Notes: generated by a model not told the origin, from the letters alone. Shown: positions 7,868 through 39,442, numbered from the stretch's first letter. The stretch: DNA of 64,000 nt from Alphaproteobacteria bacterium (GCA_965205265.1 CBDBGH010000003.1:2752001-2816000); one strand, 5' to 3'. Numbers and translations: made by a program.

Positions 7868-7868
7868 T

Positions 7869-8001
7869 GAGCGCCGAGCGCCGAGCGCCGAGCGCCGAGC
7901 GCCGAGCGCCGAGCGCCGAGCGCCGAGCGCCGAGCGCCGAGCGCCGAGCGCCGAGCGCCGAGCGCCGAGCGCCGAGCGCCGAGCGCCGAGCGCCGAGCGC
8001 C
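7869..8001 (+). repeat. Simple sequence repeat (GAGCGCC)x19
   Basis: 133 bp of perfect heptamer repeats directly after TATAAT. Confidence 0.98.
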
Positions 8002-9561: not shown

Positions 9562-10016
9562 AGAACTGGGACCCTCTCGGCGTGGCTCAGGCGTCCGGGG
9601 TGGTTAGTGCACAGGGTGCCGCAAGGGCTCCACTACAATGTGAAGGACTGGTCGCTCGTCGTTTATCCTGACGGGACTTCGACTTCGCTGGACTCTGGTG
9701 TCTGGGCGTCCGTTGTGCATGGCACCCGGACCGCCTCCACGAGCATGCCGCAGACGGGAATGGCGACCTATGCTGGCAGAGCGTCGGCCTATGTCTTCGA
9801 ACCCAGCCCGGGAGAGGGGCGCGCCTCGTCCAACTATGCTGAAGGCTACAGCGGCTCGCTGACGTTGTCGGCGGACTTCGCGGCGGGCAGCGTCTCCGGC
9901 CGGATTTCCGACCTCGAGCATAGCCCGACATACTTCAACAGCGGCACCTACAGTGCGGCCGCTGGCGAGTTCACGATCTCCAACGGAGCCATCCAGGGGA
10001 ACGCCCTGTCCGGCAC
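9562..10016. repeat. 455-bp direct repeat copy 1 (IS1634 target duplication)
   Basis: Matches 11933-12387 (offset 2371); the antisense ORFs 9587-9931 and 11958-12302 translate identically. Confidence 0.95.
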
Positions 10017-11932: not shown

Positions 11933-12387
11933 AGAACTGGGACCCTCTCGGCGTGGCTCAGGCGTCCGGGGTGGTTAGTGCACAGGGTGCCGCAAGGGCT
12001 CCACTACAATGTGAAGGACTGGTCGCTCGTCGTTTATCCTGACGGGACTTCGACTTCGCTGGACTCTGGTGTCTGGGCGTCCGTTGTGCATGGCACCCGG
12101 ACCGCCTCCACGAGCATGCCGCAGACGGGAATGGCGACCTATGCTGGCAGAGCGTCGGCCTATGTCTTCGAACCCAGCCCGGGAGAGGGGCGCGCCTCGT
12201 CCAACTATGCTGAAGGCTACAGCGGCTCGCTGACGTTGTCGGCGGACTTCGCGGCGGGCAGCGTCTCCGGCCGGATTTCCGACCTCGAGCATAGCCCGAC
12301 ATACTTCAACAGCGGCACCTACAGTGCGGCCGCTGGCGAGTTCACGATCTCCAACGGAGCCATCCAGGGGAACGCCCTGTCCGGCAC
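11933..12387. repeat. 455-bp direct repeat copy 2
   Basis: Matches 9562-10016. Confidence 0.95.
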
Positions 12388-12538
12388 CTTGTCAGGTCTA
12401 GGCTACAGCGGCACCGTCTCGGGCGCCTTCTACGGGCCGGCTGTCGACGAGGCCGCCGGCGTGATGCAGGCGGCGGGACCGGAAGGCAAGCTGCTTCACG
12501 GCTGGTTCGGCGGCGCCCGCCAGTAGCAACGCCCGCAG

Positions 12539-18100: not shown

Positions 18101-18739
18101 CGCGACGACCAGATCCCGCGGCGTTACCGTCACGGCAGGGCCGTCATCGTCGAGCATTACCACTCGCACGACGTACTGCGAGCCCGGGCGGTAGCCTGCT
18201 CCGGACCTGACGATGAACTGCAGCCAGCCGTTCGGCTCATGGCTGTCGTCGCCGACAGTCCGGACGCGGATCGTCTTTTCGCTCTCTCCCCGATAGAAGG
18301 TGACGGTCCGTCTGCCGGTGTCCATCGGTTCGGCAATGTCGCTCCACTGGCTCTCGCCCACCGAGACGTTCACGGTCACGCCGCCCTGCGGCGCCGGGCT
18401 CGACAGCGTCACCGTGAAGGTCGCGTCCGTCCCCTCGAGTACCGGGCCTTCCCCTGCGACGCTGGCGCTCGGCACTGTCTGCGCGTGGGCCGGAAGCGAC
18501 ACGAGCGCGCCAAATGCAAACAGGAAGGCAAGGCGGCGGAAGTCACGGGACAACGCCAACGGAGCCCGGCGGGGCGCCCGCACCGTGCAAGGCACAAGCA
18601 CGCCCGGCGCTCCGTTCCGCGCCGGATTGTTCTCGGGATCGTTCGACATACGCGCGCGCCTCATGGCAGGGGATCGCTCCAGCATCCTGTTTGAAATTGA
18701 GCCCGCGACCGATCCGGTCCGATGGCATGCGCCAGTCAT
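15134..18739 (-). CDS. Autotransporter adhesin-like protein (Calx-beta-like, three putative-Ig repeats, FN3, C-terminal barrel); start uncertain
   Basis: VLEGTDATFTVTLS; LPAATGGNGTL..LPDGLSFD..RTLSGTPT repeats; FTGLEANTEYDITV; RQDGGDGLEGSGVELAGG; ends LLRF. Confidence 0.82.
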   Translation of the reverse strand: MTGACHRTGSVAGSISNRMLERSPAMRRARMSNDPENNPARNGAPGVLVPCTVRAPRRAPLALSRDFRRLAFLFAFGALVSLPAHAQTVPSASVAGEGPVLEGTDATFTVTLSSPAPQGGVTVNVSVGESQWSDIAEPMDTGRRTVTFYRGESEKTIRVRTVGDDSHEPNGWLQFIVRSGAGYRPGSQYVVRVVMLDDDGPAVTVTPRDLVVAEADDPATSAKENEASYTVVLGRRPTGTVTVTPSIHTDQAGNARVDTTPLRFTAANWHMPQSVTVTGVNDNLVNERARGAQVDHAVAGFGDVNRGPSVRVTVTDDDGNAAPSFASDASIADQIYSLGLDIELLKFPRARSGDVVTYALRPSPPAGLTFEANRASTAGPDPGALTGTPTALQGKTTYTYTATDRKNRTASLTFSITVVAEDLMPSFRPGTSIANRSFTKDVQIEPLVLPAATGGNGTLHYSVLGPPGNLFLPDGLSFDEETRTLSGTPTALQGPTTYAYRVADADSDRATLTFTIEVEEALAAVPNLTVAAVDGATDRLRATWDTVDGATRYAVRSVKVSNSTLSGSDDITSTSHIFTGLEANTEYDITVTALGPGNPAPRLARSTRRARTNSPPGSSSRPTVTDLAPSFAADASIPDRTWTQDRTMADLLLPAASGGDGTLTYDLLGTLPAGLSFDPLTRRLTGTPTTTQAATTYTYRATDEDGDAAELAFAIIVAEDPRRARVQAAVEQALAAVARRATAGALDNIGARFGDIGASGLSLAGEWLPLEGGAATATAENNGLRPCAAERFGGGYGGLPGCAAAGSRTMEAGRLFGASAFSLHLGASEGSGSSPTTPLWAVWGRGDLGTFAGRGEAGLSYDGALRTGWLGIDARAGPWVAGLAVSHGEGEADYAFAGDDPSGRGRLETSLTAAYPYGRWTLGDGLELRGVVGAGEGEARHKPEDGATETGGLTMRMASLGARRALPDLAGVALAVRADASITRVEIEEGPDAIHGLSADSWRLRAGMEASRRFALEGDAAFEPFLEAAMRQDGGDGLEGSGVELAGGLRWVAPEIAVELRGRWLTAHSEEGAEEKGVSLTARAGPGADGRGLFFALSPRWGADAGGARALWSDEMPNPSASGNSGAVDARLGYGFGLAAAGVLTPFAEAGLAGGDSGRLKIGTRFDASRADLRLELAGERRERAAATPEHALRLDLLLRF

Positions 18740-22430: not shown

Positions 22431-22847
22431 GCAGCCCGACATCCGCGCGGCCTCGGTCAGAACCGCGAACGTCGCAGCTCCGGCTATTGCTGTGCAAGCC
22501 CCAGCAACATGGCGTCCGGCGTATAGCTCGCAACGCCTTAATGGTCGCCAACGCACTTGCCCATGTCGCACATCGCCGACGCGGCCGACGCCTGCGGCCC
22601 GATACGCTGGCCGTCTTCCGGCGTGCAGAGCTGCGGCTTCTCCATGCCGAGCCGCTCCGCGACCTTCGCGCCGAAAGCGAAGGCGGTCCCGAATTCGACC
22701 TCAACATCGGAAGTCCGCAGAAAAAGTAATCGGCCGTCCTACCGAACGAAGATGAACTTATGGACCTCATATTAATTCGGTATTTGCCGGCGCAGTTGGC
22801 CGGCTCCATCCTGCCGCGAGTGCAATAGCTGCGAAAGGAGCAGACAG

Positions 22848-23342
22848 ATGCACGTCAGACGAATCGACGTACGGAGCCTGGCGGCCGCGGTCGCGGCGCT
22901 GGGCATCGTGGCGGCGCTGGCCGGTCCCGCGCTGGCTGGCGGGGACAGCGGTCCGCCCGCCCGTACGGGCAAGATCCACGACGACTGCGAACTGTTCAGC
23001 CTCACGGTGACGACCAGCAGCGTCACGATGAAGGCGGCCTGCAGGGTCAGCGATGAAAACACCAGCATGAAGTGGTCGACCGTCAACCTCAGCAACAATA
23101 TCAAGGTCGACACGAAGGAGACGGGCCATCTGAGGTGGGGCGGCAGCAACTTCCAGGACCACTGCAGCGGCATCGCCGTCGAGCAGCAGGACAGCGGCGT
23201 GAAGCTGAAGGCCACATGCAACTACTACTGCAATTTCGACAGAGGCCGGTATTTCGGCTGCCCCTCGGGGAGCACGAATACGTCGCTGCAGTTGGCCGAC
23301 TACTACGAGGCGAGTTCCAGCGGCACCCTGGCGGTCAAATGA
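22848..23342 (+). CDS. Secreted cyanovirin-N-like (CVNH) protein, paralogue 1
   Basis: Sec signal ...AGPALA|GG; four Cys spaced as in CV-N; STVNLSNNI..GHLRW.GSNF..HC; extra Cys pair. Confidence 0.72.
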   Translation: MHVRRIDVRSLAAAVAALGIVAALAGPALAGGDSGPPARTGKIHDDCELFSLTVTTSSVTMKAACRVSDENTSMKWSTVNLSNNIKVDTKETGHLRWGGSNFQDHCSGIAVEQQDSGVKLKATCNYYCNFDRGRYFGCPSGSTNTSLQLADYYEASSSGTLAVK

Positions 23343-23504
23343 GCCGGCGGCGGCTTGGGACCGGCAGGCTGGACAGGCGGCGTTCGCCGGAGAGGCGCCG
23401 AGGACAGGCTTAATCGGCGCGACAGGAATTCGGTATTGGCCTGCCGCAACCTGCCCGCCCCAGGCTTCGGGGCGTGCAACGACTGCGAAGAAAGGAGCAG
23501 ACAG

Positions 23505-23993
23505 ATGCGCACAAGACGAATCGGCATACGGAGCCTGGCGGTCGCGGTCGCGGCGCTGGGCGTCGCGGCGGTCCTGGCCGGCCCCGCATTGGCGGGGGGA
23601 GGCGGACCCTCCGCCCGGACCGGGAAGATCCACCAGGATTGCGACCAGTTCAGCACGCAGGCGTCGGGCGACAAGCTCCTGCTCAAGGCAAACTGCAGGA
23701 CCAGCGACGACAACGAGAACAAGAAGCAGACGAGCGTGAACCTCGCGGCCAACATCGGCAACGCCGACGGCTATTTGACCTGGAACGGAAACAGCTTCCA
23801 CAAGAGCTGCAACAAAATCGCCGCCGAGAAGCATAACGACGGCGTGAAGCTGAAGGCTTCATGCAGCTATCAGTATTGCAGGAAACCGAACCAGTTCCAG
23901 GACTTCGGCTGCCAGACCAAGAGACGGGATACGTCGCTGGAGCTGAACTCCTACTACGAGGTGAACTCGTCGGGCGACCTGACGGTCAAATAG
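23505..23993 (+). CDS. Secreted CVNH-like protein, paralogue 2
   Basis: RBS AAGGAG; TSVNLAANIGNADGYLTWNGNSFHKSC resembles CV-N SSIDLNSVIENVDGSLKWQPSNFIETC. Confidence 0.8.
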   Translation: MRTRRIGIRSLAVAVAALGVAAVLAGPALAGGGGPSARTGKIHQDCDQFSTQASGDKLLLKANCRTSDDNENKKQTSVNLAANIGNADGYLTWNGNSFHKSCNKIAAEKHNDGVKLKASCSYQYCRKPNQFQDFGCQTKRRDTSLELNSYYEVNSSGDLTVK

Positions 23994-24155
23994 GCCGGCG
24001 GCGGCTCGGGACCGGCAGGATCGGCAGGCGGCCTTCGCCGGAGAGGCGCCGAGGACAGGCTTAATCGGCGCGACAGGAACTCGGTATTGGCCTGCCGCAA
24101 CCTGCCGGCCCCAGGCTTCGGGGCGTGCAACGACTGCGAAGAAAGGGGCAGACAG

Positions 24156-24617
24156 ATGCGCGTAATGCGATTCAATGAACGGAGCCTGTTTGGCGCTATT
24201 GCCGCGCTGGGCGTCGCGGCAATGCTGGCCGGCCCTGCGCTGGCGGGGGGGTCGGGCCCCGACCCCCGGACTGGAAACATCCACGACGACTGCAACCAGT
24301 TCAGCCTGCAGGAGGACGGCGACAAGCTCCTGCTCAAGGCGAAGTGCAGGACGAGCGACAGCAACACCGACAAGAAGGAGACGAGCATCGACCTCGCCGC
24401 CAGTATCGGCAACGACAATGGCTACCTGAAATGGAACCAGAGCCTCTTCCACAAGAGCTGCGACACCCTCAGCCTCTCGCCCCACACCCAGGGAGTACTG
24501 CTGTGGGCCAGCTGCACCTACCTGCTGCAGCAGTACCACAAGCAGAAACGCAGAACGAAGATGGAGCTGGGTGACCGCTATCGGACCGACTCGTCGGGGG
24601 ATCTGGCGATCCGGTAA
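24156..24617 (+). CDS. Secreted CVNH-like protein, paralogue 3
   Basis: TSIDLAASIGNDNGYLKWNQSLFHKSC; only the four core Cys. Confidence 0.8.
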   Translation: MRVMRFNERSLFGAIAALGVAAMLAGPALAGGSGPDPRTGNIHDDCNQFSLQEDGDKLLLKAKCRTSDSNTDKKETSIDLAASIGNDNGYLKWNQSLFHKSCDTLSLSPHTQGVLLWASCTYLLQQYHKQKRRTKMELGDRYRTDSSGDLAIR

Positions 24618-24741
24618 TGGCGCTTCGGGCCGGGCTCCGAAGACGGGCTTATGGGAGCGATAGGAATTCGGTATTTGCGTGGCGCAACCGCCGGTTCCAC
24701 GCTTCGGGAAGTGCGGCAACCGCGAAGAAAGGAGCGGACAG

Positions 24742-25290
24742 ATGCGCGTAATACGATTCCATGCACGGAGCTTGGTCGGCGCTATCGCCGCGCTGGGCAT
24801 TGCGGCGGCGCTGGCCGGTCCCGCCCTAGCCGGCGGGGGCGGCGGTCCTCCCGCACGGACGGGGGCAATCCACGATGACTGCGAGGGGGTAAGCCTTCAG
24901 GAATCGGGCGGTAAGCTGGAACTTCGGGCCAACTGCAGAACCAGCGACGAAAATGAGGACAAGGCGCAGACAAGCATCGACCTTTCCGACATCAAGGCTG
25001 TCCCAAATCATCGAGTGGGCATCCTTCCGAACAGCGAGCGAATCAACCCCTTCCCCGGACTGGGATGGAGGGAATCGGGCTGGAGCCGCTTTTACGACGC
25101 CTGCCATAGCACCGAACTCCAAAAGCGTTCCGGCGGTGTCTGGGGAATAAAGACGCGGTGCAGAATTCAGATATGCGCTGCGGATTGGGGCGGCCGTATG
25201 ACCAACTGCAGCGATTCCGAAACCTGGGGGTATTTCGATCTGCACAGCAAGTACTGGGTGAACTCGGCAGGCAAGCTGGCGATCAGGTAA
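24742..25290 (+). CDS. Secreted CVNH-like protein, paralogue 4 (with insertion)
   Basis: Same leader and IHDDC..ANCRTSD..TSIDL core; Pro-rich insert before GLGW; extra Cys pair. Confidence 0.72.
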   Translation: MRVIRFHARSLVGAIAALGIAAALAGPALAGGGGGPPARTGAIHDDCEGVSLQESGGKLELRANCRTSDENEDKAQTSIDLSDIKAVPNHRVGILPNSERINPFPGLGWRESGWSRFYDACHSTELQKRSGGVWGIKTRCRIQICAADWGGRMTNCSDSETWGYFDLHSKYWVNSAGKLAIR

Positions 25291-25436
25291 GCCGCTCTGG
25301 ACTGGGTCTCCGTTACCGGGTGGACCGGGGTTCGAAGACGGACTTATGGGAGCGATAGGAATTCGGTATTTGCGTGGCGCAACCGCCGGTTCCACGCTTC
25401 GGGAAGTGCAACAACCGCGAAGAAAGGAGCGGACAG

Positions 25437-25901
25437 ATGCGCGTAATGCGATTCAATGCACGCAGCCTGGTCGGGGCTATCGCCGCGCTGGGCATTGCGG
25501 CGATGCTGGCCGGCCCCGCTGTGGCCGGAGGCGGATCGTCCGGCCGGACGGGGCATATCAACAAGGATTGCAGCGGGTTCAGCCTGCAGACCGACGGCGA
25601 CAAGTGCCTGTTCAAGGCGAGCTGCAGGACGAACGACGACAACGAGGACAAGAAGGCGACCAGCATCGACATCGCGGCCAATATCGGCAACTACGGGGGC
25701 AACCTGACGTGGAACTACAGCCGCTTTCACAAGAGTTGCGGCCAGATCAGCCTCGATGACCTGAGTGTGAAGGCATACTGTCCGTATTCGGTCTGTCCCC
25801 GGAATACGGGAGGCGAATGCCAAACGAGGTGGAAGTGGTCATGGTTCAACCTGACTACGAAATACAAGGTGAACTCGTCGGGCGATCTGGCCTTGAAGTA
25901 A
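25437..25901 (+). CDS. Secreted CVNH-like protein, paralogue 5
   Basis: TSIDIAANIGNYGGNLTWNYSRFHKSC; C-terminal YKVNSSGDLALK. Confidence 0.8.
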   Translation: MRVMRFNARSLVGAIAALGIAAMLAGPAVAGGGSSGRTGHINKDCSGFSLQTDGDKCLFKASCRTNDDNEDKKATSIDIAANIGNYGGNLTWNYSRFHKSCGQISLDDLSVKAYCPYSVCPRNTGGECQTRWKWSWFNLTTKYKVNSSGDLALK

Positions 25902-25943
25902 GCCGCCCGACGGCGGTGTCCCGTTCGGAAGGCGCGCGATAGC

Positions 25944-27665
25944 ATGGAACGCATCCCGGGGGACGGATCCCCGGCAGCCCGAACCTGCCATACGGAGCTT
26001 CCGGCGTCGGCTCCGCTCTCCGATAGCCCGGAGAGTGGAGCCCTGCCGCGAAGCGCCTTCAGGCTGCGCATTGCCGGCGGATTCGCCTCGCTCCGGGGCT
26101 GGCGCCGTTGGTGCGCGGCGACGCTGTCGGGCCTGTTGGCCGCAACCGCGCAACCGCCGCTGCTGCTGCTCCCTGCGCTCTTCGCCGGCTTCGCCGGGCT
26201 GCTCTGGCTGCTGGCCGGCGCGTCCGGGGCCCGGCAGCGGTGGTTCGACGGGTGGCTGTTCGGGATCGGGTATTTCGGCGCCGGGCTTTACTGGATTGCG
26301 GCCGCATCCGAGAACGACGCCAACCGGCTCCCGTGGCTGGTTCCGGCCATCACGGTCGGCCTGGTGCTGGTGCTTGCGCTGTTTCCCGCCGCCGCCGCGC
26401 TGGCGGCGGGCCGGCGGCCGCTGCGCCCGGCCGGGATCCTGGCGTTCGCGGGCGCCTTCACCCTGTTCGAATGGGTGCGCGGCTGGATCTTATCGGGATT
26501 TGCGTGGAATCCGGTCGGCAATATCTGGATCGAGGTCCTCCCGGTGCTGCAGGCGGCGTCGTGGTTCGGCGTTTACGGCCTGACCTTCGCGACCGTCTAT
26601 GCGGCCGCAGGCCTGGCCGCGCTCGCGTTGCGGGAACGCGGGGCAGGGGCGGCCGCGCTGTCGGGCGTCCTGCTTCTGGCCGGGTTAGCGGCGGCGGGCG
26701 CCGTCCGGCTGTCCGGAGCCCCGGCGGACTCTGGCGGCGGGGCGGCGCTGCGCATCGTGCAGCCGCATGTCGCCTCCCGCGGCAATTGGACTTCGAGCAG
26801 GCAGGCCGAGATCTTCCGGCGGTTGACCCGGATGACCGGACAAGACATGCCGGCGGGCGCCGTCGTCATCTGGCCGGAGGTGGCGATGCCCTATGTGGTG
26901 CAGATCGACGCGGAGAGCGACCCCCGGCTTGCCGGGCTGGCGCCGGAGGGCGGATACCTGATCACCGGCGCGGTCCGGTACCGGTATGAGAACGACCGGC
27001 AGGCGGAGGCCTGGAACGGCCTCATCGCGGTCGATGACGAAGCCCGCATCGTCGCCCAGTACCAGAAGCACCACCTTGTCCCGCTCGGCGAGTATGTTCC
27101 GTTTCCCGAACTGTTCGGCCTGCGGCGGGTCACCTGGGGCCGGCTGAACTTCTCGCCCGGCCCGGGGCTTGCCCTGCTCGACCTTCCGGGCCTGGTGCCG
27201 TTCGCGCCCCAGATCTGCTACGAGATCATCTTCCCGGACGCGGCGGTGGACCGGAGCGCTCCCCGTCCGGCCTGGCTGCTCTCGCTGACCAATGACGGGT
27301 GGTTCGGCGAGACCGCCGGCCCCTATCAGCATTTCGCATCGGCGCGGATGCGGGCGGTGGAGGAAGGCGCGCCGCTGGTGCGCGCGGCCAATACCGGCAT
27401 CTCCGCGGTCACGGACGCATACGGGCGCGTGACGCACCGCCTGGAACCGGGAGCGCGCGGTGTCATCGATGCGCGGCTGCCGCCCCCGTCTCCGTCCCCG
27501 ACGCTCTTTTCGCGGTACGGAAATGCCGCGGCGGCGATTCCTGTGCTCCTCGCCGGCCTGTTCCTGGCGGCGCGGAGGCTGCCGGCGATCTTCCGATACA
27601 GGCGGGCCATCGGATCGGGCAGAAAGGGGAACGGCGCGGACCCGGCCCTCGCCCGGGACAGGTGA
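25944..27665 (+). CDS. lnt: Apolipoprotein N-acyltransferase (Lnt/AatD-like)
   Basis: Multiple TM helices; nitrilase triad WPE, YQKHHLVPLGEYVP, ICYEIIFP; TNDGWFG, RAANTGIS. Confidence 0.92.
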   Translation: MERIPGDGSPAARTCHTELPASAPLSDSPESGALPRSAFRLRIAGGFASLRGWRRWCAATLSGLLAATAQPPLLLLPALFAGFAGLLWLLAGASGARQRWFDGWLFGIGYFGAGLYWIAAASENDANRLPWLVPAITVGLVLVLALFPAAAALAAGRRPLRPAGILAFAGAFTLFEWVRGWILSGFAWNPVGNIWIEVLPVLQAASWFGVYGLTFATVYAAAGLAALALRERGAGAAALSGVLLLAGLAAAGAVRLSGAPADSGGGAALRIVQPHVASRGNWTSSRQAEIFRRLTRMTGQDMPAGAVVIWPEVAMPYVVQIDAESDPRLAGLAPEGGYLITGAVRYRYENDRQAEAWNGLIAVDDEARIVAQYQKHHLVPLGEYVPFPELFGLRRVTWGRLNFSPGPGLALLDLPGLVPFAPQICYEIIFPDAAVDRSAPRPAWLLSLTNDGWFGETAGPYQHFASARMRAVEEGAPLVRAANTGISAVTDAYGRVTHRLEPGARGVIDARLPPPSPSPTLFSRYGNAAAAIPVLLAGLFLAARRLPAIFRYRRAIGSGRKGNGADPALARDR

Positions 27666-27764
27666 GAGTCCCGGGTCCGATTGGCTATCCAACTCCGACG
27701 GGCTATTTTGAACGCCGAATGGGCACTTCAGCGAATGCCGTCCGAGGACCGGCCCGGCAATGTC

Positions 27765-29261
27765 ATGAGGAAGGGAACGATCCTGGGTTTCGCCGCCGTG
27801 TGCCTCGTCGTTCTGGTGCAGGACAGGGAGGATGCGCTGGCCGCCGGGCAGCCGGAGACGGTCCGGCTCACTCTGGCCGAGGCGGTGGAACGGGCGTTGC
27901 GCCGCAACCCGAAGCTCGTGGAAGCCAGGCTCGACCGGACTCTAGAGAAGTTCGACCTCGAACAGGCCGAAGCCATGTTTGCGCCGGAGGTGAGTTTCGG
28001 CACAGCAGCTACCGGTTACAAGCTCGACCGGGGCGCGGACACAAGGAGCTACGAGTTCCGTGCAGGGCCCAGCGTGACTATGAAGCTGCCCACGGGCGGA
28101 GAGATCGGCGTCAAACCGGCCTGGACCGCGACGCTCGACCGTACCGGCGAACCCGGCCAAGTTTACGATGCGACGATGGAGTTGTCCTTCTCGCATCCGC
28201 TGCTGAAGGGCGCGGGGCTGGACGCCGGCCTGGCGCCGATCAGGCTCGCGCGCATAGCGGAGGAGAGCAATGTCCTGAAACTCAGGGCCGACGCGATGGA
28301 TGTCGTCACCTCGGTGATCGAGGCCTACCGCGCGGCGATCCGGGCGGAGAAACAGGTCGAGATCGACGAGGGCGCGCTGCAGCGCGCAAAGGAAACGCTT
28401 GAGGTCAACCGGCTGCTCGTCGACACCGGCAGGATGGCGCGGGCGGATATCGTTCAGACCGAGGCCGACATCGCGAGGCGGGAACTGGACGTGGTCCGCA
28501 GCCGGGACCGCATGGACGACGCCGGGAGGAAGCTGAACGTCCTTCTCGATCTGGACAGCGGCATCCGGCTCGTGCCCGTCGATCCGCTGACCGTCGAACC
28601 GCACCGGCCCGACCTGGAGGCCATCCGGGCGCTGGGCCGGGAACGCAACCCCGGCTATCTCGGGGCGCGGCTGGCCCTGCGGGCCGCCGAGATCCGGCTG
28701 GAGCAGGCGGAGGACAACTCGCTCTGGGACCTGTCGTTCACGGCCAGGGCCGAGTTCGGGGGACAAGGCGGTTCGTTCGGTTCGGGGCTGGGAGACCTGG
28801 CCGGCGATAGCAGGAACGAGGGCGCCTATTCCCTCGGCCTCGCCCTGAGCGTACCGCTGGGCGACACGGCGGCGAAGGCCGCCAAACGGGCGCAACTGGC
28901 TGCGCGGCTGGACCGCCGGAAGGCGGAGCGCGCGCTGGCGACGGCCGCGCGCGAGTTGGACACCGGCCTGCTCAACGCGGTGCGCGCGGTGGAGCTGGGG
29001 CTGACGCAAATGGAGCTGGCGCGCCAGGCGCTGGCGCTCGCCGAGGAAAAACTCCGGATCGAACAGGGGAAGCTCCGGCTGGGCCTGACGTCGAATTACC
29101 GGCTGGCCTCCTTCCAGACCGATCTCGTCAATGCGCAGGTCAGCGAGCTCGATGCAAAGGTCGGGTATCTGAACGCGGTTGCGGCGCTCGACAGGGCGGC
29201 GGGCACGGTCCTCGATACCTGGAATATCGATATCCGCAGCCTGTCCGAGGACCGGAAATGA
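27765..29261 (+). CDS. TolC-family outer-membrane channel
   Basis: LTLAEAVERALRRNP; two OEP repeats; GRMARADIVQ / GLTSNYRL; start may lie upstream (27681). Confidence 0.88.
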   Translation: MRKGTILGFAAVCLVVLVQDREDALAAGQPETVRLTLAEAVERALRRNPKLVEARLDRTLEKFDLEQAEAMFAPEVSFGTAATGYKLDRGADTRSYEFRAGPSVTMKLPTGGEIGVKPAWTATLDRTGEPGQVYDATMELSFSHPLLKGAGLDAGLAPIRLARIAEESNVLKLRADAMDVVTSVIEAYRAAIRAEKQVEIDEGALQRAKETLEVNRLLVDTGRMARADIVQTEADIARRELDVVRSRDRMDDAGRKLNVLLDLDSGIRLVPVDPLTVEPHRPDLEAIRALGRERNPGYLGARLALRAAEIRLEQAEDNSLWDLSFTARAEFGGQGGSFGSGLGDLAGDSRNEGAYSLGLALSVPLGDTAAKAAKRAQLAARLDRRKAERALATAARELDTGLLNAVRAVELGLTQMELARQALALAEEKLRIEQGKLRLGLTSNYRLASFQTDLVNAQVSELDAKVGYLNAVAALDRAAGTVLDTWNIDIRSLSEDRK

Positions 29262-31060
29262 GCGCGCCGGTTCACGAGGCCATTCTGGATGACATGGACG
29301 ACGGCGTCGTGTCGATCGCGAAGGACGGCAGCATCATATTCGTCAACGCGGCCGCCGCGCGCATTCTCGGACTGGAGGGCGCCCGGGTCGAGGGCCGCAA
29401 GTTCGGCGAGGTCTTTGCGGCGCTGGAAGGCCTGGACCCGTTCACCGAAACCGTTCTCGACGCGGTCGGCGAGGAGCAGGATATCGGCCGGAAGGCCATC
29501 GAGATCCACGCCGGGGGCGAACGGCGCCTGCTGAAGATCGGCACGTCCTGGCTGCATTCCGGCAAGGGGGCGGACAGCCGGCGCGCGGGCATCGTTGCGG
29601 TCTTCTCGGATATCACGGAAATCCAGGAGTTGCGCGAGACGGAAATCAGGCTGGGCGAGAGGATCAGGGAGCAGTACGGCGAGCTCCAGGACGCCTACCG
29701 CAAGATCGAGGAGAGCAACAGCGAACTGTCGTCGACGCTTCGGCGCGTGCAGGCGATAAAGGTCGTCGCCGCCGCGGTGGCCGCGATTATTCTCGGCGCC
29801 GGATACTACGCCTGGCGAACGACCCAGGGCCCCATTGCCGCCGAGGCGGCGGCGCCGGCGGGAGAAGGCGGGCAACCCGCCACCCTGGTCGTCCAGCCCC
29901 GGCAATTGCGCTCGACCGTGTCCTTCCCCGGTCGGCTTGGACCGCGGCGGCAAACGAATGTCGTCAGCCCGGTCCCCGGCGTTGTGAGCGCGCTGCATTT
30001 CCAGTACGGCGACAAGGTCGAGAAAGGGCAGGTTCTGCTTGAACTCGACATTTCGAAGATCGTTCGGGAACACCGGTCGGTGCGGGCGAAATACATCGAG
30101 ACCGTCAAGCGCGCCAAGGAACTTGAGGACTGGGAGAGCGGCCCCGAAATGCTGGCCGCGCATCGCGCCCTGGACCGGTCCCGGCGCACCCTCGACAGGC
30201 AGAAGCGGAAGCTGGAGCAGACCGCCTTTCTGCTCGAAAGCGGCGTGATCCCCGCATCGGAACACGAAGCGGCCCTGGAGCAGTACGAAAGCCTCAAGGT
30301 CGAGCACCGGACGACGGAGGAGAAGCTCGAGGCGGTGCGGGAACGGGGCGGCGCTGCGGCCAGGGAGGTGTCGAAGCTGGAATTGCAGACGGTGGAGGAG
30401 CAGCTCCGCGAGTTGGAGGCTGCGATGGAGCTGTCTGCTGTGCGGGCGCCGATATCGGGCATCGTCGCGCAACCGGCTCAGGACCGCCTGGGCTTCCCGG
30501 GACAATCGGATGGGGGCAGGCTTCCCCTGAAGGGAACGCAGGTATCGCGCGGGCAACTTCTGCTGACCGTTGCGGATGTCGAATCCCTCTCCGTCAAGGG
30601 GTCCGTCGATGAAGTGGAGGTGACGAAGCTGCGTGTGGGGCAACCGGTCGCCGTCACCGGGGATGCGTTCGCCGGCGTTGCGCTCTCCGGCGCCCTCAGC
30701 AGCGTCTCTTCGCAGGCCGCCAATGCCGTGTCGCATGGCAACCAGCCCGCGCTTTTCAGCTTTGTCGCCGCGCTCGACGAATTGGGCCCGGGGGTCCGGC
30801 AACGGTTGCGGCTGGGCATGACGGTCGATGTCGAGGTCGTAATCGAGGACATGCCCGAAGCATTGCTCGTCCCGCTTCGGGCGGTGCAGCGGCGAGGCGA
30901 TTCGCTGTCCGTCCGGGTCCTGGACCGGGCCACCGGCGAAATACGGGCCGTGGAGGTCGAAACCGGGACGACGACCCGCGACTCGGTGCATGTCAGGCGC
31001 GGGCTCTCCGCCGGCGATACGATCGTTCTCGACGACAGGGACAGCGGGCCCCGCGGATGA
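29258..31060 (+). CDS. Membrane-fusion (MacA/HlyD-type) adaptor with N-terminal PAS domain
   Basis: ILDDMDDGVVSIAKDGSIIFVNAAAARILG...VAVFSDITE (PAS); coiled coil; TM; VVSPVPGVVS...GDKVEKGQVL; VRAPISG; GLSAGDTIV. Confidence 0.88.
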   Translation: MSAPVHEAILDDMDDGVVSIAKDGSIIFVNAAAARILGLEGARVEGRKFGEVFAALEGLDPFTETVLDAVGEEQDIGRKAIEIHAGGERRLLKIGTSWLHSGKGADSRRAGIVAVFSDITEIQELRETEIRLGERIREQYGELQDAYRKIEESNSELSSTLRRVQAIKVVAAAVAAIILGAGYYAWRTTQGPIAAEAAAPAGEGGQPATLVVQPRQLRSTVSFPGRLGPRRQTNVVSPVPGVVSALHFQYGDKVEKGQVLLELDISKIVREHRSVRAKYIETVKRAKELEDWESGPEMLAAHRALDRSRRTLDRQKRKLEQTAFLLESGVIPASEHEAALEQYESLKVEHRTTEEKLEAVRERGGAAAREVSKLELQTVEEQLRELEAAMELSAVRAPISGIVAQPAQDRLGFPGQSDGGRLPLKGTQVSRGQLLLTVADVESLSVKGSVDEVEVTKLRVGQPVAVTGDAFAGVALSGALSSVSSQAANAVSHGNQPALFSFVAALDELGPGVRQRLRLGMTVDVEVVIEDMPEALLVPLRAVQRRGDSLSVRVLDRATGEIRAVEVETGTTTRDSVHVRRGLSAGDTIVLDDRDSGPRG

Positions 31061-31788
31061 TCCGGCTCGAAGGCATCCGCAAGAGCTATCGGGTCGGCCC
31101 GGTGATGGTGGACGTCCTCAACGGCGTCTCGCTCGAAGTGCGGGCAGGCGATCTGCTGTCCGTCATGGGTCCTTCGGGATGCGGCAAGTCAACGCTCATG
31201 AACATCATCGGGCTTCTGGACCGGCCGACGAGCGGCTCCTATTTCCTGAACGGGCGCGATGCGGCCGGCATGGGCGACGACGAAGTCTCGGCGGTGCGGA
31301 ACGCCAATATCGGGTTCGTGTTCCAGTCCTTCCACCTGCTGCCCCGGCTGACGGCGGCGCAAAATGCGGGGCTTCCGCTCATATACAGGGGCGAGCCGGA
31401 GGACCGGATCAGGCGGCAGGCCGTCGAAGCGCTGGACCGGGTGGGCCTGGCGGACCGGGCCGGGCATCGGCCCAACCAGCTTTCCGGCGGCCAGCAGCAA
31501 CGCGTCGCGGTGGCGCGCGCCCTCATCGGGAGCCCGTCCGTCATCCTCGCCGACGAGCCGACGGGCGCTCTCGATCCCGATACCGGCCGGGAAATCATGG
31601 ACATGTTCGAACGGCTGAGCTCCGAGCAGCAGATGGCCGTGGTGATCGTCACCCACAGCCCGGAGGTTTCCGAGCGGTGCCGCCGGCGCGCCCGCGTCGA
31701 GGACGGACTCGTGCGGGAAGAGCGAGCCGACGGGGCTGCGGCGCAGCAGGACGGGCGCAGCGGCGGCGGTCGTGCTTTCCAGGGCTAA
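31057..31788 (+). CDS. ABC transporter ATPase (MacB/LolD type)
   Basis: GPSGCGKST; IGFVFQSFHL; LSGGQQQRVAVARAL; ILADEPTGALD. Confidence 0.95.
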   Translation: MIRLEGIRKSYRVGPVMVDVLNGVSLEVRAGDLLSVMGPSGCGKSTLMNIIGLLDRPTSGSYFLNGRDAAGMGDDEVSAVRNANIGFVFQSFHLLPRLTAAQNAGLPLIYRGEPEDRIRRQAVEALDRVGLADRAGHRPNQLSGGQQQRVAVARALIGSPSVILADEPTGALDPDTGREIMDMFERLSSEQQMAVVIVTHSPEVSERCRRRARVEDGLVREERADGAAAQQDGRSGGGRAFQG

Positions 31789-32962
31789 CGTCAAGGAAGC
31801 CGTCGCCAGCCTTGCGGGCATTCGCGGCCGCAGCATTCTTGCGCTGTTCGGCATCGTGGTCGGCATCGGCTCGGTGATCGCGATGATCTCGACGGGCGAG
31901 ATCGTGAAGGAACAGGCGCTGAAGCAGTTCGAGGGGCTCGGCACCGATATCCTGGCGATCCGCCGGGTGCATACCCGGGTTCGGGGGAAGACCCTGAAAT
32001 TCTCCGAGGAGAACGTCCGCCGTCTCGTGCTGGACACGCCGGAAGTCTCGGCTGCCGCCACCTGGCTGGACGTGGGCGGGGACCCCCATTTCGCCGGAAA
32101 GAGGATACCGGGCGAAATCGTCGTGATGGGAGCGACGGAGTCCCTGGCCGCGATTAACAGGCTCAGGATGGCGGCAGGGCGTTTCGTCTCGCATCTCGAC
32201 CTGCACCAGCACTATTGCGTGCTGGGCGACGCGGTGGCGCGCGCCTTGCGCCGCGCCGGAGCCGGCGACGTGCTCGGAGAGAAAATCCGTCTTCAGGGGC
32301 GCCTCTTCACCGTCGTCGGCGTGCTGGAGCCGACTCCCCCGCGGCGCTTCGGGCAGGACCTCCGGCCGGATAATACCGTGTTCCTGACCCTCGGCGCCGC
32401 ACAGCGCCTCTCATCCCAGAATGTGCTCCGGCGCATCGTGGCCCGGATCTCGCCCGGCGTGCTTCCCGAAGCCGCGACGCCGGCCGTCCATTCCTTTTTC
32501 CAGCATCACGTGCCGGGCCTGCGCTTCGAAATAACGGCCGCCGAACAGCTTATCGAACGCATGCGCAACCAGGGCCGGCTGTTCACGCTTCTGCTCGCTG
32601 CGGTTGGCAGCATCTCGCTGATCGTCGGCGGCGTCGGGGTGATGAACCTGATGCTCATCTCGGTCAGCGAACGGCGCGCCGAGATCGGGCTTCGGCGCGC
32701 CGTGGGCGCGCGGCGGAGCGACATCCTCCAGCAATTCGTTACCGAGTCGGTAGTGCTGTGCCTTCTCGGCGGCGTGCTCGGCATTCTCCTGGGCGTCGGA
32801 GCCTCCTGGGGCATCTGCCAGTTCGCCGGCTGGCCGTTTTCGGTGTCGACGACATCCATGGTCCTGGGCGTGGGCGTATCCACGGGCGTCGGGGTCCTGT
32901 TCGGCCTCTACCCGGCGCACAAGGCGTCGCGGCTCGATCCGATTGCCGCGCTGCGCTCGTAG
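31772..32962 (+). CDS. MacB-type ABC permease (type VII)
   Basis: RSILALFGIVVGIGSVI; large periplasmic domain; ISLIVGGVGVMNLMLISVSERRAEIGLRRAVGA; PAHKASRLDPIAALR. Confidence 0.93.
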   Translation: MLSRANVKEAVASLAGIRGRSILALFGIVVGIGSVIAMISTGEIVKEQALKQFEGLGTDILAIRRVHTRVRGKTLKFSEENVRRLVLDTPEVSAAATWLDVGGDPHFAGKRIPGEIVVMGATESLAAINRLRMAAGRFVSHLDLHQHYCVLGDAVARALRRAGAGDVLGEKIRLQGRLFTVVGVLEPTPPRRFGQDLRPDNTVFLTLGAAQRLSSQNVLRRIVARISPGVLPEAATPAVHSFFQHHVPGLRFEITAAEQLIERMRNQGRLFTLLLAAVGSISLIVGGVGVMNLMLISVSERRAEIGLRRAVGARRSDILQQFVTESVVLCLLGGVLGILLGVGASWGICQFAGWPFSVSTTSMVLGVGVSTGVGVLFGLYPAHKASRLDPIAALRS

Positions 32963-33108
32963 GCGCCTGTTGTCGGCCGGGAACAGGCGAGCGCATCCGG
33001 GATGCCCTCCCTGCCGGTGTCCGCCGTCGCATCGACACGCGGAACCCCCTGAATTGGCAGAATGTCACGGGTCCTTCGACTCCGTGAAGATAATCTCATG
33101 GGTGCCAT

Positions 33109-33126
33109 AGGAAATCGGTATTTCCT
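33109..33126. promoter_or_regulatory. Palindromic operator-like motif AGGAAAT-CGGT-ATTTCCT (degenerate copies before paralogues 1-5)
   Basis: Copies at 22771, 23424, 24075, 24662, 25357 and 33109, each 77-81 bp upstream of the ATG. Confidence 0.65.
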
Positions 33127-33187
33127 TACGCAAACGGCTGGCTCCAGCATTCAGCGCGCCAATAACGGCAGCGAAAGGAACGGACGG

Positions 33188-33688
33188 ATGCGTATGAGAC
33201 GACCCGACATACGAAGCTTGATCGGCACCGTGGCCGTGTTGGGCATTGCGGCGATGCTGGCCGGTCCTGCATCGGCCCAGCAGACCGTCGAGGCCCGCAC
33301 GGGAAAGATCCACGAGGACTGCAGCGGATTCGGCGTGAGCGAGGTCGACAGAGTGGTCAAGATGAACGCGCAGTGCCGGACCTCCGACGACAACAACGAC
33401 AGGGCGAAGACGAGCATCAGTCTCACGAACGAGATCAGCGCGAACACCGAAACCGGCGAGCTGATTTTCGGCGGGACCGCCTTCAACTACAGTTGCAATA
33501 ACATCGGGGTCGTGAAGCACCAAACCGGCGTGAGGCTGGAGGCCGGTTGCCTGTACATCGTCGAGTGCAAAAGGAGGAGCACCACGCAGGGGAACTGCCT
33601 GGTAGGGACCACCGGCAGGAAACAGGCCACCCTGGAGTTGGCGGGTTACCTGCAGGTGAACGATGAGGGCGAGATCGAGGTCAAGTAG
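33188..33688 (+). CDS. Secreted CVNH-like protein, paralogue 6 (mature N-terminus QQ)
   Basis: Leader ...AGPASA|QQTVEARTGKIHEDC; CRTSDDN; extra Cys pair. Confidence 0.72.
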   Translation: MRMRRPDIRSLIGTVAVLGIAAMLAGPASAQQTVEARTGKIHEDCSGFGVSEVDRVVKMNAQCRTSDDNNDRAKTSISLTNEISANTETGELIFGGTAFNYSCNNIGVVKHQTGVRLEAGCLYIVECKRRSTTQGNCLVGTTGRKQATLELAGYLQVNDEGEIEVK

Positions 33689-33778
33689 CCTGCCCTCGGG
33701 CACGACGGCGGCAGGCGTGGGCGGTACGGAGCCTTCCCCCCGCCCCGCATGCCGCCGTCGAGAGAAAGGAGCAGACGG

Positions 33779-34258
33779 ATGTACCCAAGACGCTTCGACA
33801 TACGAAGCTTGATCGCCATCGTCGCCGTGTTGGGCATTGCGGCGATGGCGGCCGGCCCGGCATCGGCCCAGCAGACCGTCGAGTCCCGGACCGGGGAGAT
33901 CCACCAGGACTGCGACCGGTTCGACTACAACCTGCCCACCGACCTCTCGAAGTTCCAGCTCCTGGCATACTGCAGGACCAGCGACGACAACTCCGACCGG
34001 AAGCAGACCAGCATCGACCTCGGCGCCAACATCGGCAATAGCAGCGGTCGCCTCGTGTGGGGCGGGAACAGCTTCCAGGAGAGCTGTACTACCTTCAAGG
34101 TCGAGCAGCATACCGGCGGCGTGAAGCTGACGACCGATTGTCCCGGCCGCAGGATATATGTGGGGACCAGCAAAGAGACCGTCGAGAGGGTCACGTCATC
34201 GCTGGAGCTGGCCACATACTACAAGGTGAACGCGGACGGCGAGTTCGAGGTCAAGTAG
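33779..34258 (+). CDS. Secreted CVNH-like protein, paralogue 7 (mature N-terminus QQ)
   Basis: TSIDLGANIGNSSGRLVWGGNSFQESC; four core Cys. Confidence 0.8.
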   Translation: MYPRRFDIRSLIAIVAVLGIAAMAAGPASAQQTVESRTGEIHQDCDRFDYNLPTDLSKFQLLAYCRTSDDNSDRKQTSIDLGANIGNSSGRLVWGGNSFQESCTTFKVEQHTGGVKLTTDCPGRRIYVGTSKETVERVTSSLELATYYKVNADGEFEVK

Positions 34259-34348
34259 GCCGCCAACAGGGGGTGCACGTCCTGATTTTGCGAGGTTGAG
34301 AAATGCCATGGTTTCGCCACGATATCTGTTTCTTATATTTGGGGACAG

Positions 34349-34780
34349 ATGGAGGCGGACATGGCCAGGACCGATCACGACGGCCTCGTCGAACAGCGTG
34401 GCGAGCTGCTGCGGGAGATTGCGGGCATCGGCGACCTCCGTCAGGGTTCGCTCAGGGCACAGTACCGCAAGTGCGGCAAACCGAACTGCCATTGCGCGGT
34501 CGAGGGGGCGCAGGGGCATGGCCCCTACTGGTTGTTGACTTGGCCGGACAGGGAGACAGGGAAGTCCCGCGGCCGCACCGTTCCCGCCGACGCCATTGAG
34601 GGAACGCGGGCGCAGATCGCGGAATACCAGCGGCTTCGCGGTCTGGTGCGCGCGCTTGTCGAGGTCAGCGGCCGGATATGCGATGCCAGGCTGGACGCGG
34701 ACAAGCCGGCCGCGCCGGGAAAAAGGGGGGTCTCGACGCAGCGATCGCGGAGGAGGTCGAGGCCGAGGTCGAGTGGCTGA
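34349..34780 (+). CDS. IS-associated small Zn-finger-like ORF (DUF6788-like)
   Basis: GSLRAQYRKCGKPNCHC...HGPYWLLTW; overlaps the transposase frame at GGGAAAAGGGGGG. Confidence 0.75.
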   Translation: MEADMARTDHDGLVEQRGELLREIAGIGDLRQGSLRAQYRKCGKPNCHCAVEGAQGHGPYWLLTWPDRETGKSRGRTVPADAIEGTRAQIAEYQRLRGLVRALVEVSGRICDARLDADKPAAPGKRGVSTQRSRRRSRPRSSG

Positions 34781-36060
34781 TCGGCGCGGGCGTCGTCGAT
34801 GACTTCCAGGCGATCGAGATCGAAGCGCGGCGGGTTGCGTTGCAGATCATGGGGCAGGCCGTCGCCCACAGGCTCAATGCCGACCGTTCCGACAACCGGG
34901 GACCGTGGCTGTCGTGTGCGTGCGGCGGCGAGGCGCGCTTCGCCGGCCGCCGGCCCAAGACCTTCACCACCGCTCTCGGCCCTCTGACGCTGGAGCGCGC
35001 CTGGTATCACTGCGACCGTTGCCACCGCGGCTTCAGCCCGCGTGATCGAACCCTCGGCATGCAAGATACTTTCCTCTCACCGGCGGCGCTGCGCATGATC
35101 GGCGTTGCTGCTGCCCGTACCAGCTTCGAGGGCTCCAGCGCCCTGTTGCGCGAACTGGCAGGCCTGGCTGTCGCGCCGAAGACGGTCGAACGCCATGCCG
35201 AGGCGCTCGGGCGAGAGATCGCAGGCGACGAATGCCGCGTGATCGAACCCGAGCCGTCCGACGCCCCCACCCTCTATCTCGGCCTCGACGGCACCGGCGT
35301 GCCGGCGCGCAAGACCGAGGTCGAGGGCCGCGCGGGCAAGCAGCCCGACGGCTCCGCCAGCACCCGCGAGGCCAAGCTCGCCGTCGTGTGGTCGGCGGAG
35401 ACCGTCGACAGGGAGGGGCGTCCGGTGCGCGACCCCGGCTCCGCCACCTACAACGCCGCCATCGAATCCATCGCCACCCGCGAGTTCGACCCCGAGCCCG
35501 CGCCCTTCGCCCGGCGTGTCATCCGCGAGGCCGAACGCCGCGGCTTCGACACGGCCGAGCGCCGGGTCATCCTCGGCGACGGCGCGCCGTGGATCTGGAA
35601 CTTCGCCGATGAGCACTTCCCCGACGCCATCCAGATCGTCGACATCTTCCATGCCAAGGGCCACCTGTTCGACGCAGCCAAGGCGATCTACGGGACCGGC
35701 AGCGAGATCGGTGAGCGATGGGCCGGGAAGCGGCGCGAGGAACTCGACGAGGGCCGCGTCGACGAGGTGATCGCCGCCCTCAAGGGCCATGCCGAAACTT
35801 GCGAGAACGCCCGCAAGAACGCCGAGTATTTCACCAACAACCGCGAGCGCATGAACTACCCGAAGTTCCGCGCGATGGGCTTGTGCGTGGCCAGCGGCGT
35901 GGTCGAGGGCGGCTGCAAGAACATCGTCGGCGCCCGCCTCAAGCAGGGAGGCATGCGCTGGACCGTCAACGGCGCCAACGCCATCATCGCCCTGCGCTGC
36001 GCCGTCGAGAGCAATCGCTTCGACGACTTCTGGGAACGACGAGCCGGCGCAATACCATGA
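34678..36060 (+). CDS. ISKra4-family transposase
   Basis: CACG..RAWYHCDRC; LYLGLDGTGVP; ILGDGAPWIW; DIFHAKGHL; ASGVVEGGCKNIV..RLKQGGMRW. Confidence 0.88.
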   Translation: MRCQAGRGQAGRAGKKGGLDAAIAEEVEAEVEWLIGAGVVDDFQAIEIEARRVALQIMGQAVAHRLNADRSDNRGPWLSCACGGEARFAGRRPKTFTTALGPLTLERAWYHCDRCHRGFSPRDRTLGMQDTFLSPAALRMIGVAAARTSFEGSSALLRELAGLAVAPKTVERHAEALGREIAGDECRVIEPEPSDAPTLYLGLDGTGVPARKTEVEGRAGKQPDGSASTREAKLAVVWSAETVDREGRPVRDPGSATYNAAIESIATREFDPEPAPFARRVIREAERRGFDTAERRVILGDGAPWIWNFADEHFPDAIQIVDIFHAKGHLFDAAKAIYGTGSEIGERWAGKRREELDEGRVDEVIAALKGHAETCENARKNAEYFTNNRERMNYPKFRAMGLCVASGVVEGGCKNIVGARLKQGGMRWTVNGANAIIALRCAVESNRFDDFWERRAGAIP

Positions 36061-36097
36061 ATCTCACAAATGCGACGTGCACCCGCCAACAGGCCGC

Positions 36098-37094: not shown

Positions 37095-39442
<2,348 letters not shown>

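Follow-up and report, generated by a model that had tools for sequence, protein, structure and literature searches.

To our knowledge, the Aat/Cex systems of enteric pathogens are the only source of glycine-acylated "non-canonical lipoproteins", and their cargo is a single small protein family. The locus considered here lies in a stretch of 64,000 nucleotides from an alphaproteobacterium (GCA_965205265.1, CBDBGH010000003.1:2752001-2816000, or G000:C3:2752001-2816000 in our numbering). This whole stretch is hereafter called the window, and positions are window coordinates unless another contig is named. In it, genes for an accessory N-acyltransferase of the Lnt clade and for a MacB-type export pump are embedded in an array of genes for lectins related to cyanovirin-N (CV-N), that is, of the CVNH family. 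The host is probably a marine alphaproteobacterium. The reading favoured below, which is considered probable with wide room left for error, is that the locus encodes a convergent, Aat-like system for the glycine lipidation and secretion of surface lectins, built independently of Aat.

The Aat model and the action of MacB-type transporters on periplasmic substrates are established (PMC7943197; PMC8689077; these papers, like PMC7478709 and PMC13622617, are cited for the portions of their text that were accessible). The Glu-Lys-Cys triad is named in PMC7478709. In the case of CexE, the processed protein begins with GGGNS, and acylation depends on the first glycine (G20) and less on the second (PMC7943197). 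With regard to distribution, AatD is described as restricted to Enterobacterales (PMC7478709), only enteric genera are found among 826 Aat accessions (PMC7943197), and the accessible portions of PMC13622617 and PMC8689077 contain no further Aat lineage. A full-text literature search returned no Aat-like system described in Alphaproteobacteria, and no paper joining CVNH with MacB, TolC or an N-acyltransferase.

The genes of the locus are the following, with the paralogues P1 to P7 called GG type or Gln type after the start of the predicted mature protein:

22848..23342, plus strand: P1, CVNH-like lectin paralogue, GG type; open reading frame (ORF) with Pfam CVNH at 28.8 bits against a cut-off of 24.5, and a signal peptide ending in ALA followed by GGDSGPPA
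23505..23993, plus strand: P2, CVNH-like lectin paralogue, GG type; Pfam CVNH 38.8 bits, AlphaFold2 model and Foldseek search
24156..24617, plus strand: P3, CVNH-like lectin paralogue, GG type; Pfam CVNH 46.7 bits, family alignment
24742..25290, plus strand: P4, CVNH-like lectin paralogue, GG type; Pfam CVNH 15.7 bits (below the cut-off), aligns with the family, insertion of ~20 residues
25437..25901, plus strand: P5, CVNH-like lectin paralogue, GG type; Pfam CVNH 35.5 bits, 42 nt 5′ of lnt
25944..27665, plus strand: accessory Lnt-clade N-acyltransferase; TIGR00546, LNT_N and CN_hydrolase domains, triad, tree
27681..29261 (alternative ATG at 27765), plus strand: TolC-family outer-membrane channel; Pfam OEP 112.9 bits, TIGR01844 129.7 bits (below its cut-off)
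29258..31060, plus strand: periplasmic adaptor (membrane fusion protein) with an N-terminal PAS domain; PAS families at residues 7-121, HlyD/RND_mfp families at 225-592
31057..31788, plus strand: ABC ATPase, MacB/LolD-like; ABC_tran, NCBIfam MacB N-terminal part 242.9 bits and LolD 216.9 bits (both below their cut-offs)
31772..32962, plus strand: MacB-type (type VII ABC) permease with a periplasmic core domain; MacB_PCD 111.7 bits and FtsX 76.4 bits
33188..33688, plus strand: P6, family paralogue, Gln type; signal peptide ending in ASA followed by QQTVEA, no Pfam CVNH match at E <= 1, aligns with the family
33779..34258, plus strand: P7, CVNH-like paralogue, Gln type; Pfam CVNH 39.2 bits, close metagenomic relative P0009

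An earlier note, made from the DNA alone, had read here five paralogues, then lnt-tolC-PAS/MFP-ATPase-MacB permease, then two further paralogues, all on the plus strand. This order is borne out by the ORFs and by Pfam and NCBIfam, and the interval that the note gave, 22771-34258, correctly brackets the array. Within the five acyltransferase and transport genes, 15 nt separate lnt from tolC, and the remaining junctions are overlaps of 4, 4 and 17 nt. The lnt gene is immediately preceded by the five GG genes, with 42 nt from the end of P5 to its ATG, and the permease gene is followed by the two Gln genes. No regulator gene is present within 22771-34258, the remainder of the window not having been searched for one; in Aat, the point of comparison is AggR/Rns of the AraC/XylS family.

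The locus thus shares with Aat the same five functional parts, namely an acyltransferase of the Lnt fold with a Glu-Lys-Cys triad, a type VII ABC permease and its ATPase on split genes, an adaptor and a TolC-like channel. In both, the cargo genes adjoin the operon and the locus is on a mobile island. Most tellingly, by analogy, the kind of cargo N-terminus appears to be the same, in that Gly-Gly comes after a signal peptidase I site and a lipobox is lacking. Here, this holds for P1 to P5 by predicted cleavage; Aap reads AFA and then GGSG.

In the favoured reading, the lectin precursors would cross the inner membrane by Sec and be cut by signal peptidase I after A-x-A. The five copies encoded upstream of lnt would then expose Gly-Gly, and the accessory Lnt-clade enzyme would N-acylate the first glycine. 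The MacB-type transporter, with its split ATPase and permease, would extract the monoacylated lectin from the inner membrane together with the PAS adaptor and the TolC-like channel, and this pump would deliver it to the outer face of the outer membrane, with the cytoplasmic PAS domain perhaps gating export on a signal. The Gln-type copies (P6, P7 and an eighth copy elsewhere in the genome) might use the same pump without a lipid and then be released, or might not be substrates. What the data provide for this scheme is the gene content and order, the CVNH fold, the intact triad, a second-copy Lnt, a diverged accessory clade and the apparent co-location of cargo, Lnt and adaptor elsewhere. From these, we infer the cleavage site, acylation, export, surface display and sugar binding.

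The seven paralogues align over their full length, with 41-53% identity to P1, and have in common a 30-residue signal peptide ending in A-x-A, an invariant R-T-G and four invariant cysteines. The Sec signal and four cysteines that had been noticed earlier in each paralogue are thus present in 7/7, and, given the shared signal, cysteines and identity, the paralogues are homologous and do not resemble one another by chance. The Pfam CVNH (PF08881) cut-off is exceeded by five of the seven, P4 and P6 being the exceptions; the insertion of P4 is also found in a metagenomic relative, P0005. Both copies tested match the NCBIfam mannose-binding lectin model below its cut-off. When a profile of eight mature domains was compared with the PDB, CV-N chains were matched at E values from 3.4e-17 (a tandem CV-N) to ~1e-7. 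In this alignment, the cysteines and the S-I-D-L...G-x-L-x-W...F...C core line up with CV-N, and the three invariant cysteines that fall within the displayed CV-N alignments (the equivalents of C34, C72 and C90, out of four) each stand opposite a CV-N cysteine. An AlphaFold2 model of mature P2, built on the family alignment, has a pLDDT of 90.9 and a pTM of 0.81. Its Foldseek search against the PDB gave 20 matches at E <= 0.001, and the 24 rows displayed for ranks 1-25 (rank 15 is not among them) are all CVNH entries, with identities of 11-29% (18-29% for single-domain entries) and target-normalised TM-scores of at most 0.86 (0.68-0.86 for monomeric CVNH entries). The CVNH membership proposed in the earlier note therefore stands both on Pfam and on structure prediction, and by family and predicted fold the paralogues are CVNH lectins. 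They resemble the known ones (CV-N, Cyt-CVNH, microvirin and the fungal and fern CVNHs) in their PF08881 matches, their fold and a pseudo-repeat with a cysteine pair per half. By contrast, the solved CVNHs are only 18-29% identical to them, and the second half of the paralogues is interrupted by a variable insertion (10-35 residues) that often brings in one more cysteine pair. They also carry a Sec signal and a short linker that starts with Gly or Gln, and are arranged in a tandem array linked to an exporter.

Cleavage sites were placed by the -3/-1 rule only. Under this rule, P1 to P5 would start, after A-L/V-A, with GGDSGPPA, GGGGPSA, GGSGPDP, GGGGGPPA and GGGSSG, so that A-x-A followed by GG is predicted in 5/7 paralogues of the window and 5/8 of the genome. 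In P6, P7 and the eighth copy, ASA is followed by QQ or QT. No lipobox cysteine is found in the alignment in any paralogue. Two other readings of these N-termini were rejected: a Tat signal, as the twin arginine is not conserved (P3-P5 have a single Arg), and a double-glycine bacteriocin leader, as the proteins start with an ordinary Sec signal that ends in A-x-A. Among the metagenomic relatives, P0002, P0005, P0024 and P0025 are of GG type, most others begin with Gln and one (P0020) with Asp. The eighth copy, of Gln type, is located outside the island at G000:C3:586102-586596 (L010 1501-1998). It directly adjoins a transposase-like ORF of 373 aa, presumably an IS630-type transposase look-alike.

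The window Lnt matches the TIGR00546 equivalog at 286.7 bits (cut-off 132.9) and has both Pfam domains, LNT_N and CN_hydrolase. Its residues are conserved in the columns that correspond to E. coli E267, K335, C387, W237, E343, Y388 and E389, which we take to be catalytic or essential in E. coli Lnt. The genome has two Lnt genes, 40% identical, and the other follows ybeY and a CorC/CBS gene, a synteny that corresponds to ybeY-ybeX-lnt of E. coli. The window Lnt is therefore a second copy, the housekeeping Lnt being elsewhere in ybeY-corC-lnt synteny, and the possibility raised earlier that it might be the sole housekeeping enzyme is ruled out. In a sample of the class (its tallies, for Lnt and for the lectin family, include G076 and G275, flagged unpublished, on which no separate claim is made), an Lnt match at E <= 1e-40 was found in 353/401 genomes, almost all single, and none of the 401 holds an Lnt more than 48% identical to the window copy. 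Its close relatives are metagenomic: among the 120 matches listed of 1,950, P0193 is 79% identical, P0194 and P0195 are 70% identical, and the next match falls to 54%. In a maximum-likelihood tree of 43 Lnts (all trees are quick searches, with SH-aLRT support only), from which AatD and E. coli Lnt were omitted because of their very long branches, the window Lnt and P0193-P0195 make up a clade (SH-aLRT 100, stem 0.87) that is nested among alphaproteobacterial Lnts.

This clade has lost residues that are otherwise nearly invariant. When positions kept in >= 90% of 40 canonical Lnts and changed in >= 3/4 clade members were collected, the changes in E. coli numbering were W132F, P147A, Q233S/A, K236N/G/E, S315G, D334Q/L/E, D364N/Q, T373L, N409S/A and L438A. 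W132F, Q233S/A and T373L occur in 4/4 members. K236 is Lys in 40/40 canonical enzymes. D334, which adjoins the catalytic Lys, is also replaced in 4/4, by Gln in the window Lnt only, and AatD likewise has Gln there. In effect, the window Lnt resembles a canonical one in its full-length TIGR00546 match, both Pfam domains, the triad and the other active-site residues tested. It differs in being a second copy outside ybeY-corC-lnt with no classical lipoprotein genes adjoining it, in its long stem branch and in the loss of near-invariant residues, including K236. The true start of lnt is uncertain, as the first ~50 residues of the annotated ORF are not conserved in P0193-P0195. A marine-metagenome relative has only 4 nt where the 5′ end of lnt has 46 (25998-26045), a net difference of 42 nt that keeps the frame. 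A predicted complex of the accessory Lnt with mature P2 scored 0.00, which is not evidence either way.

The pump resembles MacAB-TolC in its MacB periplasmic core domain and FtsX permease, its adaptor and its TolC, and a Sec-delivered cargo fits the route from periplasm to outside. It differs in having ATPase and permease on separate genes, an adaptor with a cytoplasmic PAS domain and an acyltransferase gene in the operon. The permease matches the C-terminal part of MacB in NCBIfam at 157.7 bits and lolCE at 31 bits. Since the MacB/MacA equivalog scores are far below their cut-offs, the pump is a relative of MacAB-TolC and not an orthologue. The combination of PAS and adaptor is found in 47/54 adaptor relatives listed. 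Distant pumps of this make-up are present in another alphaproteobacterial genus (L076 and L077, on G724:C2 and G081:C2); there, TolC and the adaptor are encoded in one direction and the ATPase and permease in the opposite one, near ftsK, lolA and a gene for an Exo_endo_phos protein.

The lectin family is very rare. Its profile, searched exhaustively against 1.84 billion protein representatives, gave 130 matches at E <= 0.001 and 23 at E <= 1e-10, and ~20 of the proteins matched are full-length and built like the paralogues of the window. A sample of 400 genomes of the class yielded no member, nor did a plasmid search with the relative P0010. Pattern scans for the relatives' loci, with the signal-peptide pattern (genome contigs), a smaller family alignment (genome and metagenome contigs) and P0011 (metagenome contigs), returned nothing. 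Co-location elsewhere was instead deduced from contigs of identical size and source in cluster records, in which gene order is not seen:

Logan contig of 8,629 nt: P0024 (GG type), the Lnt orthologue P0193 (79%) and the adaptor orthologue P0140 (70%)
Contig of 89,255 nt (NCBI/Logan/ENA): P0010 (Gln type), P0020 (Asp type) and the adaptor P0139 (71%)
Contig of 16,175 nt: P0009 and P0314
Contig of 154,262 nt: P0011 and P0134

It is implausible that homologues of three adjacent window genes would lie on different contigs, each of 8,629 nt, and they are thus presumably on the same one. Consequently, GG-type cargo, accessory Lnt and adaptor appear to be linked in a second organism, and the linkage of this Lnt to lectin genes in relatives, on which the earlier note had made its proposal depend, would hold for P0024, P0193 and P0140. 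In addition, diverged pieces from a marine-metagenome run (X7), which differ by 5-12%, span the lnt-tolC (27632-27922) and adaptor-ATPase (30928-31236) junctions, and runs X4 and X5, which bear other organism labels, hold contigs over the lectin array with 0-8 differences, most with none.

Several observations weigh against the favoured reading, and the first group concerns Aat itself. When aatPABCD and aap of the pAA plasmid of enteroaggregative E. coli 042 (NC_017627) were compared with the window proteins by BLASTP, no component proved to be specifically related to Aat: the window Lnt matches AatD at E 0.4, TolC has no match to AatA nor the adaptor to AatB, and the permease is 23% identical to AatP at E 0.002. 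The ATPase is 35% identical to AatC (E 1.8e-34), which is generic for that ABC class and leaves no orthology between the systems, and Aap gives chance-level rows only against the pump proteins (the paralogues were not compared directly with Aap). In a tree of 35 rows that includes AatD and E. coli Lnt, AatD is on a branch of ~8-10 and the window Lnt is among alphaproteobacterial Lnts. Membership of the AatD lineage is thus not borne out: the window enzyme is a recent offshoot of alphaproteobacterial Lnt, and AatD a very distant lineage. The gene order also differs, with the acyltransferase first and the permease last here. Moreover, a PAS domain is present in the adaptor, the cargo, which is not of Aap/CexE type, is an array of 7-8 CVNH paralogues that do not all have Gly, and the host is an alphaproteobacterium, whereas in the accessible portions of PMC7478709 and PMC7943197 Aat is reported only from Enterobacterales. 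Given the lack of specific similarity and the other gene order, the system does not belong to the Aat family by descent, and its likeness to Aat, as judged from the sequences, is one of architecture and logic. The label "Aat-like" of the earlier note therefore survives for the functional parts and the Gly-Gly of P1-P5. It fails for the Lnt, which is not of the AatD lineage, for the unrelated TolC and adaptor, for the MacB-like permease and for the three of eight paralogues with Gln.

The second group concerns the cargo, the enzyme and the pump. Three of the eight genomic paralogues and most metagenomic relatives begin with Gln or Asp and not with Gly. In a quick tree built from 26 domains, the GG label has to change 4 times, at least 2 of these changes being forced by well-supported branches, and P1 (GG) is sister to the Gln-type P0004 with SH-aLRT 100. 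In view of this switching between GG and Gln, the first predicted mature residue is evolutionarily labile, which fits a sorting signal and is no proof of one. On the 89,255-nt contig, there is no Lnt among the 120 matches listed of 1,950, and the adaptor accompanies two non-Gly members; thus, the pump can apparently go without Lnt. At the same time, this one case is consistent with an Lnt that accompanies only GG-type cargo. The housekeeping Lnt of the genome is itself divergent, with 14/109 conserved positions changed, and the argument therefore lies in which residues change and in their sharing across the clade, not in their number. Distant PAS-adaptor pumps, at 32-33% identity, occur in two genomes of another genus without Lnt within 10 kb, so that, on sequence comparison, the pump family is spread more widely than its link to lectins. 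Finally, accessory Lnts exist for other reasons, as in the plasmid islands considered below.

In its fullest form, the favoured reading would hold that N-terminal glycine lipidation arose at least twice, that a duplicated alphaproteobacterial Lnt which lost K236, Q233 and D334 acylates Gly-Gly CVNH lectins, that a PAS-gated MacB-type pump brings them to the surface, and that the first mature residue, Gly or Gln, decides within the one array whether a lectin is anchored by lipid or released. This extended version is offered tentatively, as something rather more apt to fail than to hold.

The alternative that survives best, which is nevertheless judged unlikely, is that the MacB-type pump exports the lectins and the accessory Lnt instead acylates ordinary lipoproteins, as a back-up or stress copy, or modifies a pump component. 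In effect, the score of the window enzyme is that of a full Lnt, and on the 89,255-nt contig the pump seems to be combined with non-Gly members and with no Lnt among the matches listed. Second Lnts on mobile DNA are also found in other settings. The accessory lnt is matched in 285 plasmid records. On plasmids, such genes are repeatedly found in copper/heavy-metal islands, mostly right behind lspA (L041, L042, L062, L079), and 4/4 plasmid contexts inspected are metal-resistance islands with lspA. These lspA-lnt pairs of marine Alphaproteobacteria encode enzymes ~40% identical to the window Lnt. By contrast with the locus, however, their neighbours are lspA, copper/heavy-metal ATPases, SCO and PCuAC, without a MacB-type pump or lectins, and in the tree their Lnts group apart from the accessory clade of the window. 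Among multi-Lnt genomes (>= 2 matches), of which 5/6 were examined and G249 was left out, five second-copy lnt loci (G139, G180, G377) had 0 tblastn matches to the pump proteins within ~10 kb. Against an ordinary lipoprotein substrate, the ORF and Pfam scan found no lspA and no metal genes at the locus, and lnt is inside the operon, 42 nt after a GG-type gene. Furthermore, the accessory clade lacks Lnt-invariant residues near the active site, the GG N-terminus matches AatD substrates, and the one other contig with an Lnt orthologue apparently carries GG-type cargo.

Somewhat less likely still is an accidental neighbourhood, in which an ordinary MacAB-TolC-type efflux or peptide exporter would have come to lie, in an island rich in insertion sequences (IS), beside an amplified lectin family that is merely exported by Sec. 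The island is bounded by mobile-element ORFs in an IS-rich stretch, the lectin family is absent from 36/36 other genomes of the taxonomic family, and related PAS-adaptor pumps are found in housekeeping contexts without lectins. Nevertheless, the paralogues flank the operon on both sides and on the same strand, and the three gene families seem to recur together on the 8,629-nt contig, as do the adaptor and two members on that of 89,255 nt. Since the family is so rare, with ~20 full-length members among 1.84 billion proteins, repeated chance association is unlikely. The least probable alternative, that the paralogues are diversified antagonistic or protective proteins (lectin-like bacteriocins, or anti-predator or anti-phage coats) with the pump as their dedicated exporter and are not host-glycan lectins, would suit the dedicated ABC exporter, the tandem and strongly diverged paralogues (30-55% identity in their mature parts) behind much better conserved leaders, and the variation between paralogues opposite CV-N residues 50-58, which we take to be binding residues, but an immunity gene is not evident, the paralogues match no PADLOC defence family (the only PADLOC rows are generic ones for an ABC ATPase and a LolE-type permease domain), and, concerning only the role of the cargo, it is compatible with the favoured export mechanism.

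The leaders just mentioned are as follows:

22730-22847, 23343-23504, 23994-24155, 24618-24741, 25291-25436 and 32963-33187, plus strand: six conserved non-coding leaders of ~110-160 nt ahead of P1-P6 (alignment)

Over the 120 nt upstream, P2 and P3 are 97% identical and P4 and P5 are 91% identical, compared with only 68% and 57% for the mature coding DNA; most of the leader is missing from P7 and the eighth copy. This conservation may reflect gene conversion of an intergenic unit, or a shared regulatory element with a diversifying cargo. A GCUCC-like stretch of the leader (e.g. 23460-23500) can pair with the GGAGC Shine-Dalgarno sequence, the two stretches being columns 78-82 and 115-119 of the leader alignment, and P3 is changed on both sides of one pair. 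A structured RNA is not claimed, because the covariation term of the consensus fold is unfavourable (+2.22), and a sigma-54 reading was rejected by eye on hexamer spacing. Rfam has no family in the window at gathering thresholds, and a promoter and terminator scan gave nothing above shuffles.

The island is bounded on its right by the following element:

34271..36071, plus strand: 1.8-kb element with a DUF6788 ORF (34349-34780) and a UPF0236 ORF (34678-36060; Pfam)

In two other runs, 34271-36071 is assembled as a contig of its own of 1801 nt, at a depth well above that of neighbouring pump-gene pieces, which suggests a multi-copy mobile element at the right edge of the island. Further downstream, on the minus strand, there are ORFs for an IS21 IstB-like ATPase (37095-37934) and a HipA-like kinase (40266-41537). 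Upstream, a protein with a TbpB-like beta-barrel lobe (7867-10074) and a Slam/SlipAM outer-membrane protein (12539-13849) suggest an export pair for surface lipoproteins (type XI). Their genes are separated by a DDE transposase gene (10174-11829) that is flanked by a 460-nt direct repeat of 99.8% identity (9558-10017 and 11929-12388). At 15134-18739, the minus strand encodes an autotransporter of 1201 aa that has He_PIG Ig-like and fn3 domains; together with the TbpB-like/Slam pair, it makes the stretch an island rich in surface proteins.

By analogy, the locus follows the logic of Aat with different, independently recruited parts and a new class of cargo. If the favoured reading is true, a second, independently built system, with a near-housekeeping Lnt and a folded lectin as cargo, would show that the glycine-lipidation strategy is general. 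The clade-specific substitutions could explain how an Lnt shifts its acceptor from diacylglyceryl-Cys to Gly, and the Gly- and Gln-type paralogues within one array would be a natural experiment on the sorting rule. The paralogues would also represent a new bacterial branch of the CVNH lectins, a family of antiviral interest, and the system may offer a route for the display of such lectins on the Gram-negative surface.

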